From a virus: a DNA stretch of 57,694 nt. The notes under the pieces are model-generated. The model was not told the origin of the DNA, did no database searches, and saw only the letters and a list, made by a program, of their open reading frames with translations. The stretch's first letter is position 1. Each line of letters opens with the position of its first letter. Location of the stretch: the UHGV virus genome UHGV-0135630, one strand, 5' to 3'. Of this stretch, positions 4,556 through 49,211 are shown piece after piece. The position numbers and the translations under genes are program-made.

Positions 4556-5791
4556 ATGACTACTACTGCACTGCAAAATGATAAAAATCCTTCTGATTAC
4601 CTTGTTTGCAAGTGGTGCGGCAAATCATTTCACTATTTTAAGTCCCATGTAGCCAATGGTAATTGCGAGGGCATTCCTGAGTCAGTAAAAGATGCCGATC
4701 CTGACACCGTACTGAAAATGTACACAACGCAGTTTCCAGATGAACCAACGCTATCGAAAAAGGCACTTGATGCAATTCAAGCTAAACGTGCCGAGCAAAA
4801 AAGCGAAATGGCGAAATCTTCTGGCTTGACCAGTAGCCCAGGCTACACAGGCACAGTTGAGTACAAGACAGATCTGGTCGCAGCTCACGAACTGCTAAAC
4901 GTAACGGTGGAAGAACTCGGAACAAAACGTGGGACGCCGCTCATGGTTAGCGTCAACGTCAATACGCCGTATCCAGAGTTCGTTCCAGAAGTGAAGAAGG
5001 GCTACGTATATGGCGACTTCGAACTGATCAAAGATATTTTCATGATGCTTGAACTTGGCATACCTGGCTATTTGTGGGGTCATGCAGGAACAGGCAAATC
5101 GTCATTGCCTACACAGCTATGTGCTTTGCTCAATCGTCCGTTGATCCGTGCCCAACATACAGCATCAATGGAAGAGGCACATGTTACGGGGCAAATTCTG
5201 GCGCGTGATGGCTCTACGTATTTCGAGCCTGGCTTGCTTGCGCTCGCAATGAAGCATGGCTGGGTTTACCTCGCGGATGAATACGACTTTGCGTTTCCAC
5301 AAATTCTTGGCGTGTATCAGCCAGTGCTGGAAGGTGAGGCGTTGGTCATCAAAGAGGCAAATCCAGAATGGCGTCGCATTACTCCGCATGAACGGTTTGC
5401 TTTCATTGGCACTGGCAACACAAACGGTTCTGGTGATGAAACCGGCTTGTACCAGGGTACAAACATCCAGAACGCCGCGAACTTTTCACGTTTTGGCATC
5501 GTTTCGAATGTGAAATACATGAGCAAAGAGGCAGAGATCAACATGTTGATAAATGCCGGCATCGTGGATGAATACGCTGAAAAGATGGTTAAGTTTGCCG
5601 GTATCGTTCGCGATGGATATGAAGAACACCTTATCAGCCAGCCAATTGGGCCTCGTGAGCTTTTGTTGTCGGCCAAGATTGGAATGATGCGAGGCGACTT
5701 TGTGACAGGTATTGAGCGTTCTTTCATTAACAAACTCCCTTCAGCTTCTGCGCAAGCGGCTCGTGAAGTTGTTCAAAAAATATTTGGTTAA
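4556..5791 (+). CDS. AAA+ ATPase (CobS/MoxR-like)
   Basis: 411 aa; Walker A GHAGTGKSS, Walker B VYLADEYD; Cys/His cluster at N-terminus; directly downstream of the vWA gene. Confidence 0.7.
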   Translation: MTTTALQNDKNPSDYLVCKWCGKSFHYFKSHVANGNCEGIPESVKDADPDTVLKMYTTQFPDEPTLSKKALDAIQAKRAEQKSEMAKSSGLTSSPGYTGTVEYKTDLVAAHELLNVTVEELGTKRGTPLMVSVNVNTPYPEFVPEVKKGYVYGDFELIKDIFMMLELGIPGYLWGHAGTGKSSLPTQLCALLNRPLIRAQHTASMEEAHVTGQILARDGSTYFEPGLLALAMKHGWVYLADEYDFAFPQILGVYQPVLEGEALVIKEANPEWRRITPHERFAFIGTGNTNGSGDETGLYQGTNIQNAANFSRFGIVSNVKYMSKEAEINMLINAGIVDEYAEKMVKFAGIVRDGYEEHLISQPIGPRELLLSAKIGMMRGDFVTGIERSFINKLPSASAQAAREVVQKIFG

Positions 5792-9520: not shown

Positions 9521-9793
9521 AAAGAATTATGGCGCTTGTTGAGGAAGTCACTCCTCTTACGCACTTTGTTTTGCCATGCCGGCAGTTAGCTTCTGCCTTT
9601 GACTATTCATGCGGCAACCCCGCATTTCGCCACAATGGGCAATTCACTTTTATGGAATAAACTGGCCGTTGTGTCGATTTAATTAGCATGGCCTTACCAT
9701 GCTAATTTATTCAACTTGTACAATCCTACAAATCTATCCACTCAGGCTTACACCGTCTTCGTTATTGTAGAAATGAGGATCATCAGCGTTGAA

Positions 9794-10009
9794 TCAGCTT
9801 AGAGCAACGACATTTGCTGCTGCTGGGCCTTTAGCCCCATTCTCGATAGAGAATTCGACCTGCTGGCCTTCTTCCAAAGTGCGGAAATTATTACTCTGAA
9901 TTGCCGAAAAATGTACAAAAACATCTTTACTGCCATCAGCAGGAGAAATAAAGCCAAAGCCTTTATCAGAGTTAAACCATTTTACTAAACCAGTCATTTT
10001 ATTAGACAT
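9794..10009 (-). CDS. cspA: cold-shock protein, CspA family
   Basis: [37 protein letters not shown] is near-identical in pattern to E. coli CspA; start moved to the internal Met of the 103 aa ORF. Confidence 0.85.
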
Positions 10010-10338
10010 AGATATTACCTTCTTAATTTTGTGAGCCACATAGTGCGGCGAGAATTTGATCTGTATAGATTGGGACTTACTTAGGCACTTAAGGAGGAGA
10101 CTCACGAAGAAGGGAAATCAGAAGATAACACTGAACTGAGACTGCTTTACTAAAACTGCTTACATAAGGTCTGTCTTGCAAACCAACGATGCTATTAACG
10201 CATACCCCTTCTTTTCATGCAACCTTTATTTTTCAAAGATAACTAATTTTTGTCACCATTGGTTTAGTAAACGTTAACGAACCAGACGATGCCAGACACC
10301 ATTACAGAGAACAGATGCCCGCCAATTGGCGGGCATCA

Positions 10339-35132: not shown

Positions 35133-35726
35133 ATGATTGCAGCCGAAAAAATCAAACAGCGAAAGCGCGACAACTCTCTTCGTGACCTCTGGAGAACACC
35201 TGACTGGCTGTTTTCTGCCATTCAACGTTATCTTGGAGTGACATTTGATGTTGACGTTGCCTGCAACAAGGACAATGCAAAGCTGCCTAATTTCATAGGC
35301 GTTGAGCGTGATGCTTTGAAATCTGAATGGGGACAGCCAGGTACAATTGCCTTCCTCAATCCACCCTACTCCAAAATCTCCCCCTGGATTGATGCGGCTA
35401 TACGTGAGCAGGCTCGCGGAGTTACAACAGTGATGCTAATTCCTCAATCCCTAGATACAAAGTGGTATGAGCGTGCAACAGAGTGTGCGAATGAGACGAT
35501 TATTCTGTCTGGTGGCCGCGTAGCGTTTGTCGAGCCTGACGTCAATCTGGGTCAGGTAGAAGTAAACATCAACCCAGGTGGCAGTATGCTCGTTGTTTTT
35601 CGAGGATTCTGTCAGGACGCTGGGCACTCTATAAGCAAGATCCCTTTGGACGTCATGAAAAGTCTGGGAGGGTATGATCCTGCGAATGTGATCAGGAAAA
35701 AAAGACCATCAAAGAAGGCTGCTTAG
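35133..35726 (+). CDS. phage-type DNA N6-adenine methyltransferase (Dam family)
   Basis: WRTPDWLF and FLNPPYS motifs characteristic of phage Dam methyltransferases. Confidence 0.75.
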   Translation: MIAAEKIKQRKRDNSLRDLWRTPDWLFSAIQRYLGVTFDVDVACNKDNAKLPNFIGVERDALKSEWGQPGTIAFLNPPYSKISPWIDAAIREQARGVTTVMLIPQSLDTKWYERATECANETIILSGGRVAFVEPDVNLGQVEVNINPGGSMLVVFRGFCQDAGHSISKIPLDVMKSLGGYDPANVIRKKRPSKKAA

Positions 35727-35911
35727 TTTGTTCTGGCGTCTGTAATTAGCCTGCTTCTGTATATATAAATAACTACATATTAATTATTAATATACGGAAG
35801 CAGGCTGTTTTGTATCAGAGACTCCAGACCTGAACATCACTACAGAATCCACTAGAACCCCTTCCCAGACGCTTTAAAATCGATTTTATGAATCACTTTA
35901 AGGAAACTAAC

Positions 35912-36142
35912 ATGTCATACCCGACTAATGTCGTTGCGCTCGTAGAGAGCGATTTTCTGGCCCAGGCCCGTGAAATGATGAAAGATCGCGAGCAGGCTTT
36001 CAACTTGTACGAATGGGCAATTAAGTGCTTGCATCTTGGGGAGCATCGCGAACTTGTTGAACAGCTTTTAGGTGAGTTGATTAACGAGGTGTTTGCCTTG
36101 AATGTTCAACTACATGGTCGAGAAAATAATCAATCGAAATGA
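35912..36142 (+). CDS. hypothetical protein
   Basis: 76 aa from ATG after AAGGAAA RBS. Confidence 0.4.
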   Translation: MSYPTNVVALVESDFLAQAREMMKDREQAFNLYEWAIKCLHLGEHRELVEQLLGELINEVFALNVQLHGRENNQSK

Positions 36143-36179
36143 TAGATAAGTACAAACTATTCATAAAGTGAATTGTAAG

Positions 36180-36660
36180 TGCTAAGATCTGATAGTTTCC
36201 AGTCGTAGACTGGAGACTCGACCTGATGGGTGGGGGTAAGCGTCACTGGCGTCAGGTTTAAAAAAGCTCACTACCAGCGTAGAACCGGTGCCGTTTAGGT
36301 GTCGGGGAAGGGGGAACCAAAGTGAGCGGAGACAAGGGTCACTTTATGATTGTCGAGTCTGGGGTGTTTCGAGAGGTTGAATCCAGTACTCCCCTTCATA
36401 AAGTGTGGGAAGATCTCGGTTCTGGGGTGCTGTCATCCATAACTTCCCAAGTCTAAGCTGGCAGTAGACTTAGGCCATAACTTTTCAGGTTATGAAACGA
36501 CCAGGTTGGTGAGGGATTTTTATACTCACCTCCCTGGGAGAGTATTACCTGAAAAGACAACCTCTCACTTCGTTCGAGGTGAACTTCACTCACTTCGTTC
36601 GTTCAGTTCAGGTTTATAAAAACCTGTTCTGGGAAGTAATTTGTTTATTTTAATAATTAT
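36180..36660. ncRNA. candidate structured noncoding region (unknown RNA or origin-like element)
   Basis: About 480 bp without ORFs; local hairpin CCAGTCgtaGACTGG; long-range complementarity GGAGACTCGAC with GTCGAGTCT; repeated TCTGGGGTG, TTCATAAAGTG and TCACTTCGTTCG. Confidence 0.25.
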
Positions 36661-36726
36661 TAACACGCACGCGTGTGCGCACGCGCGAGGAAAAAAATCG
36701 GCGCGGCGCTTGATTCAGGAGTTTAT

Positions 36727-37320
36727 ATGACGACGAAGACACCAGCCCGATCGCAAGAAAAAACTCGCAAAAAAGCCAAAAACAAAAATTCTCCCCGCAC
36801 CAATTCCACAACGCCTGTCGTAGAGTTCAATCCCCAGCTTAAAACCGTGAAAATCTTCAGTGATGGCTCTTGCCTTAAAAATCCGGGTGGCCCGGGCGGT
36901 TACGGTATAGTTCTCCAGTATCGTGGTGAGGAACGCGAGTTCTCAGATGGTTTTCATAGCACCACCAATAACCGCATGGAGATGATGGGGGCACTTATCG
37001 GGCTGGAGCGTTTGAAATATCCATGCAACGTTATTTTGCACTCTGATAGCCAGTATCTGAAAAACGGCATGACACAGTGGATGAAATGGTGGAAACGCAA
37101 TGGATGGGTGACTTCTGACAAAAAACCGGTAAAGAATGTTGATCTGTGGAAGCGTCTGGATGAGGCTGCAAGTCGACATAATGTTCGCTGGAAGTGGGTT
37201 AAAGGTCACGCCGGGCATCGTGAAAATGAAATATGTGATCGACTCGCGAAGATCGCAGCTTTTTCCGCAGCAGATATGCCTCACAAGAAAGATATTGGTT
37301 TTGTTTACAACAAGCAGTAA
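36727..37320 (+). CDS. rnhA: ribonuclease HI
   Basis: [49 protein letters not shown]; start at MTTK after AGGAG, giving a basic N-terminal extension. Confidence 0.85.
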
Positions 37321-47020: not shown

Positions 47021-47177
47021 CCCGTCTCCTTTATTTTAATTTGCGCAATTGTCGCCTTGTAGTGTACTCCAGCTACGACATTTAATCATTTATGAGAAAT
47101 GCTGTTATCACATGGCAGACATAAGACCATTTTGTTACTATCAAGCCCCTTTTCACTACAAAGAAGTAATGCCTACT

Positions 47178-49211
47178 ATGACCCAAGTCGCGAAGAAAAT
47201 TCTGGTGACGTGCGCACTGCCGTACGCTAACGGCTCAATCCACCTCGGCCATATGCTGGAGCACATCCAGGCTGATGTCTGGGTTCGTTACCAGCGAATG
47301 CGCGGCCACGAGGTTAATTTCATCTGTGCCGACGATGCCCACGGTACGCCGATCATGCTGAAAGCCCAGCAGCTTGGTATTACCCCGGAGCAGATGATTG
47401 GCGAAATGAGTCAGGAGCATCAGACTGATTTCGCAGGCTTTAATATCAGCTACGACAACTATCACTCGACGCACAGCGAAGAGAACCGTCAGTTGTCTGA
47501 GCTTATCTATACTCGCCTGAAAGAGAACGGTTTTATTAAAAACCGCACCATCTCTCAGTTGTACGACCCGGAAAAAGGTATGTTCCTGCCGGATCGTTTT
47601 GTGAAAGGCACCTGCCCGAAATGTAAAGCGCCAGATCAATACGGCGATAACTGTGAAGTCTGCGGCGCGACCTACAGCCCGACTGAACTGATTGAACCGA
47701 AATCGGTGGTTTCTGGCGCTACGCCGGTAATGCGTGATTCTGAACACTTCTTCTTTGATCTGCCCTCTTTCAGCGAAATGTTGCAGGCATGGACCCGCAG
47801 CGGTGCGTTGCAGGAGCAGGTGGCAAACAAAATGCAGGAGTGGTTTGAATCCGGCTTGCAACAGTGGGATATCTCCCGCGATGCGCCTTACTTCGGTTTT
47901 GAAATTCCGAACGCGCCGGGTAAATATTTCTACGTCTGGCTGGACGCGCCGATTGGCTACATGGGTTCCTTCAAGAATCTGTGCGACAAGCGCGGCGACA
48001 CTACCAGCTTCGATGAATACTGGAAGAAAGACTCTACCGCTGAGCTGTACCACTTCATCGGTAAAGATATCGTTTACTTCCACAGCCTGTTCTGGCCAGC
48101 AATGCTGGAAGGCAGCAACTTCCGCAAGCCGACTAACCTGTTTGTTCATGGCTATGTGACAGTGAACGGCGCGAAGATGTCCAAGTCTCGTGGCACCTTC
48201 ATTAAGGCCAGCACCTGGCTGAATCATTTTGACGCTGACAGCCTGCGTTACTACTACACTGCGAAACTCTCTTCGCGTATTGATGATATCGACCTGAATC
48301 TGGAAGATTTCGTTCAGCGCGTAAATGCCGATATCGTCAACAAAGTAGTGAACCTGGCCTCCCGTAACGCTGGCTTTATCAACAAGCGTTTTGACGGCGT
48401 GTTGGCAAGCGAACTGGCTGCCCCTGAACTGTACAAAACCTTTACTGATGCCGCTGAAGTTATTGGCGAAGCGTGGGAAAGCCGCGAATTTGGTAAAGCG
48501 ATCCGTGAAATCATGGCGCTGGCTGATCTGGCTAACCGCTATGTCGATGAACAGGCTCCGTGGGTGGTGGCGAAGCAGGAAGGACGCGATGCCGATCTGC
48601 AGGCGATTTGCTCTATGGGCATTAACCTGTTCCGCGTGCTGATGACTTACCTGAAACCGGTACTGCCGAAACTGACAGAACGTGCGGAAGCATTCCTGAA
48701 TACGGAACTGACCTGGGATGGCATCCAGCAACCGCTGTTGGGCCACAAAGTGAATCCGTTCAAGGCACTGTATAACCGTATCGATATGAAACAGGTGGAA
48801 GCACTGGTGGAAGCATCCAAAGAAGAAGTGAAAGCAACTGCCGCGCCAGTTACTGGCCCGCTGGCTGATGATCCGATTCAGGAAACCATCACCTTTGACG
48901 ACTTCGCCAAAGTTGACCTGCGCGTGGCGCTGATTGAAAACGCAGAGTTTGTTGAGGGTTCTGACAAGCTGCTGCGCCTGACGCTGGATCTCGGTGGCGA
49001 AAAACGCAATGTCTTCTCCGGCATTCGTTCTGCTTACCCAGCCCCACAGGCACTGATTGGTCGTCACACCATTATGGTGGCTAACCTGGCTCCGCGTAAA
49101 ATGCGCTTCGGTATCTCCGAAGGCATGGTGATGGCTGCTGGCCCTGGCGGGAAAGATATCTTCCTGTTAAGCCCGGATGCTGGTGCTAAACCTGGCCACC
49201 AGGTTAAGTAA
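47178..49211 (+). CDS. metG: methionyl-tRNA synthetase
   Basis: Begins [26 protein letters not shown] (HIGH-type motif), KMSKS present, C-terminal tRNA-binding domain; start moved to the internal Met of the 720 aa ORF. Confidence 0.95.

Follow-up and report, generated by a model that had tools for sequence, protein, structure and literature searches.

The gap at 36143-36726 of the viral genome UHGV-0135630, analysed here as one stretch of 57,694 nucleotides that is referred to as the window, probably holds an independent gene on the + strand, which would encode a stable, highly folded non-coding RNA (ncRNA) of ~450 nt and be a core component of the SSU5/pHCM2-type phage-plasmids. The RNA adopts a three-domain fold, in which compensatory changes preserve the helices that vary, and the constraint on it is several-fold above that on the neighbouring protein genes. 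The region is regarded as non-coding, as already supposed in a preliminary description of this DNA, because its small ORFs, none of which exceeds 46 aa, carry frameshifts in related elements, including the 44-codon ORF CYRAN_81, which is annotated in the phage-plasmid Cyrano (97% identical here) at window positions 36322-36456. One published re-annotation lists part of the RNA as a 44-aa 'hypothetical protein' moron. The features of the locus are as follows.

35912-36142, + strand: gene of a small helical 76-aa protein (phrog_5343), left neighbour of the RNA gene.
36141-36162, no strand assigned: degenerate copy of a 22-bp palindrome (consensus GATAGGTAAGT/ACTTACCTATC), which abuts or overlaps the -35 region of the RNA promoter.
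36160-36188, + strand: putative promoter of the sigma-70 type with extended -10 (TTCATA, 17 nt, TGc-TAAGAT).
36195-36217, + strand: 5' terminal hairpin, helix 1, containing CCAGTCgtaGACTGG.
36220-36327, + strand: 5' domain, helices 2-6, with a hairpin (36220-36258) whose apex is G-rich, an A-rich linker and a three-way junction (36266-36327).
36329-36566, + strand: central multi-branch domain, which forms the almost invariant core, helices 7-16, with four hairpins.
36567-36637, + strand: 3' domain, helices 17-19, with two CTCACTTCGTTCG repeats and a hairpin (36603-36632), closed by ACUUC/GAAGU.
36638-36662, + strand: U/A-rich tail and spacer, the probable 3' end region, where conservation ends.
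36663-36709, + strand: alternating tract, A7 and GC-rich segment, prone to Z-DNA and hairpin formation, adjoining the RNase H ribosome-binding site.
36727-37320, + strand: RNase HI gene with a basic N-terminal extension (Pfam RNase_H, 1.6e-44), right neighbour.

The window was assigned to the SSU5/pHCM2-type phage-plasmids because the element matches PLSDB plasmids and 12 phage records, among them those of Salmonella phage SSU5 and Escherichia phage Cyrano. The 661 bases around the gap are 100% identical to several E. coli plasmids of ~110 kb, and the 57.7 kb cover only half of the phage-plasmid. A T4-like DNA-metabolism module with every gene on the + strand surrounds the gap in the order CobT/CobS-like, DnaE, gp32, SbcCD, NrdAB, MazG-like, ThyA, DHFR, DnaQ-like and Dam, followed by the gene of the 76-aa protein, the gap and RNase HI. 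The 76-aa protein, a helical bundle in the predicted AF2 model, is encoded at ~160 loci, each of which has downstream either the RNA of the window (family 1) or a second RNA described below (family 2). It has no Pfam family, no PDB sequence match and no fold match below E = 2, and a Rop-like role was rejected on these grounds.

The element was found in 689 PLSDB plasmids from 11 or more genera (Klebsiella, Escherichia, Enterobacter, Salmonella, Citrobacter, Cronobacter and others) and in 232 of 5426 complete E. coli genomes, in none of which it is annotated; among these 5426 genomes there is no chromosomal copy except for a CRISPR spacer. A protein-anchored scan with one genome per species returned only two Kluyvera contigs, and viral and metagenome scans for distant relatives returned only SSU5-like elements. 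The metagenome scan also contained 29 unrelated contigs with the 12-mer TCACTTCGTTCG repeated 25 nt apart, in several of which the repeats form identical loops on different stems. This was considered a coincidence because the 12-mer is a quasi-simple repeat (TCACT-TCGTT) and the contigs are mostly tandem or low-complexity arrays in unrelated contexts. No paper describing the RNA was found in the literature, including a search with 20-nt strings of its sequence. Phage-plasmids of the SSU5/pHCM2 type are common in clinical Enterobacteriaceae, where they can carry resistance genes, occur in ~4% of complete E. coli genomes and account for hundreds of Klebsiella, Enterobacter and Salmonella plasmids. 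The best-conserved stretch of the region is an RNA and not a protein gene, and no annotation pipeline reports it. Enteric bacteria rarely have a conserved RNA of this size (450 nt, ~19 helices), the hosts are experimentally tractable, and the invariance of the RNA makes it a useful marker for this type of phage-plasmid.

The degree of conservation was determined from an identity profile over 4.5 kb. When the window is compared with the SSU5, Cronobacter, Klebsiella and L152 lineages, the flanking genes show 68-85% identity, as opposed to 93-98% in the core at 36300-36600. Conservation starts at ~36217 and stops at ~36640, ahead of the spacer and the rnhA ribosome-binding site. It reflects constraint and not recent transfer, because each lineage retains its own substitutions. 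Some of the aligned sequences were gathered with an exact 26-mer, which inflates the invariance of 36337-36362; protein-anchored and BLAST-derived loci give the same conservation picture.

Folding of the + strand resulted in z = -4.4, whereas the minus strand reached z = -3.9 at a much weaker energy. The RNAalifold model from 71 distinct sequences contains 143 pairs in 19 helices (98.8% paired). In these 71 sequences, 14 pairs show double-sided changes, with a total of 172 cells, compared to 2-4 pairs with 5-24 cells when the partners were slid. G-U makes up 9.9% of the pairs, many substitutions follow a GC-GU-AU path, and a minus-strand reading of the same pairs would drop to 89% paired; the G-U pairs and G-U intermediates therefore indicate an RNA of the + strand. 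The preliminary description had proposed covariation across homologous elements as a check, and compensatory changes were found in both families.

A perfect hairpin, CCAGTC-gta-GACTGG, had been noticed in the gap; it lies at 36199-36213 and is kept in every lineage by compensatory changes. In the surrounding helix 1 (36195-36217), both partners differ between lineages in four of the seven pairs (CG/UA/AU/UG and so on); the sequence of the 5' hairpin is different in each lineage and the pairing is constant. A stem-loop at the extreme 5' end is typical of stable RNAs. Helix 2 (36220-36258) contains three double compensatory changes (AU>GC, CG>UA and AU>GC), and in the three-way junction at 36266-36327, which includes GGGGAAGGGGG, the pair 36268/36325 is seen as UA, CG and UG. 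The hairpins of the central domain are located at 36340-36406, 36407-36450, 36452-36476 and 36482-36557, and covariation is present in its helices 9, 14 and 16. The terminal hairpin of the 3' domain covaries as well (UA>GC), and the CTCACTTCGTTCG repeats of this domain can pair alternatively with CGAGGUGA, all positions being invariant. Most helices, especially in the central domain, never vary, so that covariation neither supports nor contradicts them.

Long-range complementary segments had also been described, and AGACTCGAC (36214-36222) is indeed perfectly complementary to GTCGAGTCT (36352-36360). The pairing itself is unsupported and was left out of the model, because it overlaps the competing local helix at 36220-36258, which covaries, because it shows changes on one side only, and because ~0.5 perfect 9-nt complements are expected by chance in 590 nt (own arithmetic). 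The repeats reported earlier are present, namely TCGAGTCTGGGGTG/TCGGTTCTGGGGTG at 36353 and 36416, TTCATAAAGTG at 36160 and 36395, and CTCACTTCGTTCG at 36564 and 36589. The TTCATAAAGTG copy at 36160, which is the -35 region and occurs in the E. coli lineage only, does not exceed chance.

A second RNA occupies the same slot in ~30 Klebsiella phage-plasmids, in which the homologue of the small protein is 49% identical, RNase H is 51% identical and the gap measures ~580 nt. Family 1 and family 2 share no similarity that nhmmer could match, their shared k-mers are at chance level, and the covariance model of the family-1 5' domain found nothing at the family-2 site (best E 0.35, on the wrong strand). 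The layout corresponds to that of family 1, with a palindrome (TAAGTAA-TTAT-TTACTTA) at the corresponding place, a promoter (TTTACT-N17-TATCAT), a hairpin at +1 and a fold of ~480 nt with z = -6.4. The family-2 model contains 152 pairs and is 96.3% paired, and 14 pairs are changed on both sides, compared to 0-3 when slid. As homology between the families is not detectable, a shared function would follow from synteny. Both families include plasmids without RNase H in which an unrelated or convergent gene comes next and the RNA is intact. The RNase HI gene is missing in L007, L009, L085 and L086, which retain the RNA upstream of convergent or unrelated genes (convergent in L007, L085 and L086), and is therefore dispensable for the element. 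Where the element of L085 and L086 matches that of L080, it diverges by 8-17%, and the fold is still kept.

Directly past the stop codon of the small gene lie a -35-like hexamer, a 17-nt spacing and an extended -10, the hexamers of which vary by lineage, while their positions do not. In all family-1 lineages, the position of this promoter and the motif TGnTAnnAT are kept despite differing surroundings; a stricter consensus promoter scan did not list the promoter at 36160-36188. Transcription would start at ~36195, 7 nt past the -10 and at the base of the 5' hairpin. The 22-bp palindrome next to this promoter occurs at 12 or more intergenic sites in the window, which mostly overlap the upstream stop codon, and its right arm often has a -35-like hexamer. 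The SSU5 lineage has the palindrome at corresponding sites and a perfect copy, GGTAAGTACTTACC, before the RNA, and in the E. coli lineage the right arm of the copy at the RNA promoter is damaged. In the Cyrano lysogen, the genes behind the palindrome sites are silent. Judging by these recurrent intergenic sites and the silence of the genes behind them, the palindrome looks like a dispersed operator, comparable to the C1 sites of P1 and the stoperators of mycobacteriophages, which are dispersed operators. Damage to the copy at the RNA promoter may be the reason for the RNA signal in lysogenic cultures of the E. coli lineage, and in SSU5-like lineages with a perfect palindrome, expression of the RNA may be confined to lytic growth.

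Evidence for a transcript comes from published RNA-seq data of Cyrano with ten samples, covering LB, medium after 1 h and 6 h, and macrophages after 1 h and 6 h (PMC9928086). CYRAN_81, which lies inside the element, is among the prophage genes expressed 12-fold over the local background in LB (PMC9928086, Table 1). Across the ten samples, its log2 FPKM is 6.8-10.35, compared to 3.1-5.8 for CYRAN_80 (the small protein) and 2.6-5.0 for CYRAN_82 (RNase H) (PMC9928086, S1). The element is therefore 7-40-fold above both flanking genes in 10/10 samples, where the figures refer to annotated ORFs and the ends and strand of the RNA are those predicted. Level and pattern of CYRAN_81 resemble those of the repressor gene (PMC9928086). 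These data stem from the E. coli lineage only, in which the palindrome at the promoter is degenerate, and a stable RNA from a few induced cells could alternatively account for the abundance. The structured ncRNA, one of the options of the preliminary description, is backed by covariation in two families, a conserved promoter with a 5' hairpin, extreme conservation and this transcript signal. A published RNA-seq signal and a core identity of 93-98% mean that both a transcript and conservation across related elements are present, so the ncRNA finding stands.

The 3' end of the RNA most likely lies near 36650, between 36640 and 36712. No canonical intrinsic terminator was called at 36200-36880, and an sRNA bounded by an intrinsic terminator was rejected, as no GC-rich hairpin with a U run was called at the 3' end. 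The 3' side has only an AU-rich hairpin (36609-36626), with a U-rich tract 7 nt past the extended stem. The U/A-rich tail varies in length and sequence, with a U-rich run after GGGAAGUAA in most lineages. The RNase H gene is silent in the Cyrano lysogen, its mRNA being at least 10-fold below the element signal. Further downstream, the purine-pyrimidine alternation at 36663-36687 is perfect over 25 nt and the longest in the window (the next one has 15), and in other lineages it covers 14-29 nt, though individual bases differ. The GC-rich palindrome that had been seen before the RNase H ribosome-binding site was located at 36670-36687. The segment at 36663-36709 also contains an A7 run at 36691-36697 and the GC-rich TCGGCGCGGCGC; as RNA, the GC segment would give a GC hairpin followed by UU(G)AUU.

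In the proposed course of events, a transcript from the extended -10 promoter would start at ~36195 and fold into the three domains. Transcription would end in the U-rich tract just past the last closing helix (~36640-36655), and little of it would reach RNase H. The RNA would then act in its folded form, through its tertiary structure and a conserved partner, either protein or RNA, rather than as a simple antisense RNA or an RNase H leader, since stems and loops are near-invariant, no target in the window rises above chance and the RNA is kept without RNase H. Dense tertiary or partner contacts are suggested by the near-invariance of stems and loops while the proteins drifted. Most likely, the RNA acts in connection with the early or replication programme of the phage-plasmid, because its promoter abuts an operator-like palindrome common to other early promoters and the gene lies in a T4-like DNA-metabolism module. 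There is a small chance that the RNA is either the pre-primer of a lytic origin, cut by the phage RNase HI for T4-like replication, or a new large RNP or ribozyme RNA acting on a conserved host machine; if the pre-primer reading were true, a ColE1-style origin would be embedded in a phage-plasmid.

The comparison with known RNA families did not yield an identity. In Rfam 15, the sole gathering-level match in the window is cspA at 9769-10187, and in 35700-37000 the best matches are chance microRNA models far below the threshold, with the same result for family 2. The Rfam scan suggested in the preliminary description consequently matched no family to the RNA at gathering or permissive thresholds, and a tRNA/tmRNA scan of the window found none. 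An antisense immunity RNA was rejected, as three complementary 12-mers were counted in the 57.7 kb, which represent half of the phage-plasmid, compared to ~3.6 expected (own arithmetic). A CsrA/CsrB-like sponge was rejected with GGA counts of 8 in family 1 and 10 in family 2, equal to the shuffled expectation, and a type III toxin-antitoxin RNA because the 13-nt repeats number only two and a tandem array of ~36-nt repeats is absent.

Among the described RNAs, the 'ornate' ncRNAs GOLLD and ROOL of phages and prophages are likewise several hundred nt long, rich in helices, borne by temperate phages, strongly conserved and of unknown function. Unlike these, the present RNA has no Rfam match, belongs to phage-plasmids of Enterobacteriaceae and is located next to RNase H in a DNA-metabolism module and not beside tRNA genes. 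Among the immunity RNAs of phage-plasmids and satellites, it resembles the c4 RNA of P1/P7, the CI RNA of P4 and the processed RNA of N15 in being a phage-plasmid ncRNA that is detectable in lysogenic cultures and whose promoter is tied to the phage regulatory circuit. However, those RNAs are antisense RNAs of 70-80 nt with nearby targets, whereas the RNA described here has ~450 nt and no target above chance in 57 kb.

Among the other explanations, the one that survives best is a primer similar to ColE1 RNA II or to the T4 origins, which would fold, then remain persistently hybridised to the DNA near 36663-36697, be cut by phage or host RNase HI and prime replication; we consider it improbable. 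From the promoter to the A-run, the distance of ~500 nt is near the length of ColE1 RNA II, which has 555 nt, and the likeness extends to a structured RNA with its own promoter, G-rich segments, a link to RNase H and a distal A-run flanked by GC-rich sequence. The non-template strand carries G-runs, and the GC skew is +0.2 to +0.3 over 36150-36400, although the skew of the flanking coding DNA is equally high and neither a DnaA box nor a GC-skew inflection was found at the gap. The RNase HI gene follows directly downstream, and variants without rnhA break directly after the A-run. However, the RNA persists without the RNase H gene, and family 2 has neither the GC tract nor the A-run. An RNA I-type partner is also absent: ColE1-type RNA I was rejected because there is no conserved minus-strand promoter in the 5' 150 nt and neither the Rfam RNAI model nor another one matches, and evidence of origin activity or of sequence or model similarity to RNA II is likewise lacking. 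The T4-like module contains gp32, SbcCD and DnaE in the window, a UvsW helicase is annotated in Cyrano, and T4 uses R-loop origins; the RNA promoter carries an early-type operator motif, and the Z-DNA-prone tract and the AT-rich spacer could ease unwinding. This setting recalls oriF and oriG of T4, with an early or middle promoter in the replication module and an AT-rich stretch downstream. The T4 origin RNAs, however, are not large conserved folded RNAs, an R-loop origin needs no near-invariance over 420 nt, and there is no evidence of initiation at the element. Moreover, the U-rich tract past the fold would terminate a pre-primer. Unlike ColE1, the host element already has iteron-type replicons, and the RNA is found together with several different plasmid replicon types. 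The plasmids listed in the spread across the 689 matches have ~106-198 kb, and no mini-replicon based on the element was seen. The secondary origin with an RNase H-processed primer, as put forward in the preliminary description, thus found no positive evidence, with DnaA boxes, a skew turn and small plasmids consisting of the element only all missing.

Next in probability, and doubtful as well, is a cis-acting leader or attenuator of the RNase H operon, in which the abundant short RNA would be a prematurely terminated leader and the CTCACTTCGTTCG pairings and the GC hairpin would decide on read-through. The element does lie immediately 5' of rnhA in the same orientation, and a strong leader signal with a weak gene signal is the usual picture of the 'off' state. 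Mutually exclusive pairings are possible in 36564-36637, and the GC hairpin abuts the ribosome-binding site, but the proposed switch positions are invariant and hence do not support a switch. Conservation also stops ahead of the spacer and the rnhA ribosome-binding site, the loss of rnhA in L007, L085 and L086, where convergent genes come next, has left the RNA intact, and with 450 nt and ~19 helices it is far above the size of known attenuators. An element that acts at the DNA level and is transcribed as a by-product is very unlikely, whether it serves as a cluster of protein-binding sites, through hairpins for single-strand initiation or, for example, in recombination or packaging. Such an element could account for loops that are as near-invariant as the stems, for the operator-like palindrome, for direct repeats 25 bp apart and for the Z-DNA-prone tract. 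However, the G-U intermediates and ~10% G-U pairs fit an RNA of the + strand and not duplex DNA or the minus strand, and the dedicated conserved promoter with the 5' terminal hairpin and the abundance of the transcript speak against a by-product.

An intron remnant, also among the earlier suggestions, is extremely unlikely, whether it derives from a self-splicing intron or, more widely, from some other mobile RNA element that entered the space between the two genes: the size, dense structure and genomic neighbourhood resemble those of phage group I introns, which are often held by phage nucleotide-metabolism modules, ThyA and NrdAB are nearby and two unrelated RNAs share one slot in sister lineages, but there is no Intron_gpI or Intron_gpII match at E <= 10 or any other intron family match, the RNA is intergenic with its own promoter between complete, separately initiated ORFs, it is inherited vertically with lineage-specific compensatory changes, strong purifying selection is unlike a decaying remnant, and the 5426 E. 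coli genomes contain no other copy apart from the CRISPR spacer.

This old spacer of 32 nt, CTCTCGGTTCTGGGGTACTGTTACCCATAACT, takes the last position in the iap-side type I-E array of 30 E. coli chromosomes and matches 36413-36444 of the window, with the canonical AAG PAM at 36410-36412. Inside the spacer, three positions differ (36429 G>A, 36434 C>T and 36436 T>C); in the helix 36425-36429/36434-36438, G-C thereby becomes A-U and G-U becomes G-C. Since these differences preserve the helix, the donor of the spacer was a divergent copy of the element in which the helix was kept.

The slot between the small-protein gene and the RNase H gene, which holds the family-1 RNA in the window, is occupied in about 30 Klebsiella SSU5-like plasmids by a structured RNA of about 480 nt without sequence relation to family 1, referred to here as family 2. 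It has a promoter of its own, a 5' hairpin and covariation, and was found at the following related loci (L-numbers).

L080, 3348-3930: family-2 RNA
L082-L087: family-2 RNA
L163-L169: family-2 RNA

The RNase H gene itself is absent from L007, L065, L075, L076 and L090 (family 1), from L085 and L086 (family 2) and from L009. In several of these family-1 variants, the breakpoint lies directly after the A-run plus TCGCC, which places a boundary between modules, or a point of recombination, at this motif. In the window, the A-run follows a 25-nt perfectly alternating purine-pyrimidine tract, which is Z-DNA-prone (36663-36697 for both). Among close relatives, the tract measures 14-29 nt with the alternation kept, and the A-run ranges from A5 to A9. 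This variation in length suggests a slippage-prone spacing before the RNase H ribosome-binding site.

A 32-nt CRISPR spacer present in 30 E. coli chromosomes matches the family-1 RNA gene with 4 mismatches, and the match is adjoined by a canonical AAG PAM (window 36410-36444 for match and PAM together). The spacer is the oldest in the iap-side type I-E array, and its internal mismatches are compensatory within an RNA helix.

L171, 1500-1531 (NZ_CP027579.1, 4685144-4685174): example of the spacer

The 12-mer TCACTTCGTTCG, whose copies lie 25 nt apart in the window (36565/36590), recurs with equal spacing in unrelated soil and marine contigs (L173, L176, L177, L180, L181, L188, L191, L201, L232, L238 and others). 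In several of those contigs it makes up 11-nt loops that are identical although their stems differ, or arrays in tandem with a 25-nt unit. It was judged a quasi-simple repeat.

A family of 22-bp palindromes, GATAGGTAAGT/ACTTACCTATC, is located at many gene ends of the phage-plasmid.

Window: palindrome at 1822, 4482, 11890, 15410, 17363, 20870, 25554, 35106, 36146, 37321, 42300 and 52550
L002 (related locus): palindrome at 4989, 6047, 7242 and 11516

Many copies overlap the stop codon and include a -35-like hexamer; the strict pattern was found 3 times as opposed to 0.03 expected, and the loose pattern 37 times as opposed to 17. The palindrome resembles an operator or "stoperator" dispersed over the phage-plasmid. 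The interval that separates the small gene from the Dam methylase gene contains a long inverted repeat rich in AT, GCCTGCTTC...GAAGCAGGC, with TGTTTTGT after it (35727-35833); this is probably a long-stem terminator.

Two further features of the phage-plasmid were recognised, the first being a cold-shock-protein gene carried with its regulatory 5' UTR.

Window 9769-10187, minus strand: full-length Rfam cspA thermoregulator match (185.7 bits)
Window 47049-49211, plus strand: complete methionyl-tRNA synthetase gene, including the C-terminal tRNA-binding domain

In the RNA-seq table of the near-identical E. coli phage-plasmid Cyrano, by far the strongest signal, 723-fold above background, belongs to CYRAN_43, which neighbours the integrase and is listed as a "hypothetical protein" (PMC9928086). 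This locus (OV696614, 40268-40822), which corresponds to a position just left of window position 1, might be a further RNA with a wrong annotation, or else a moron expressed at a high level.
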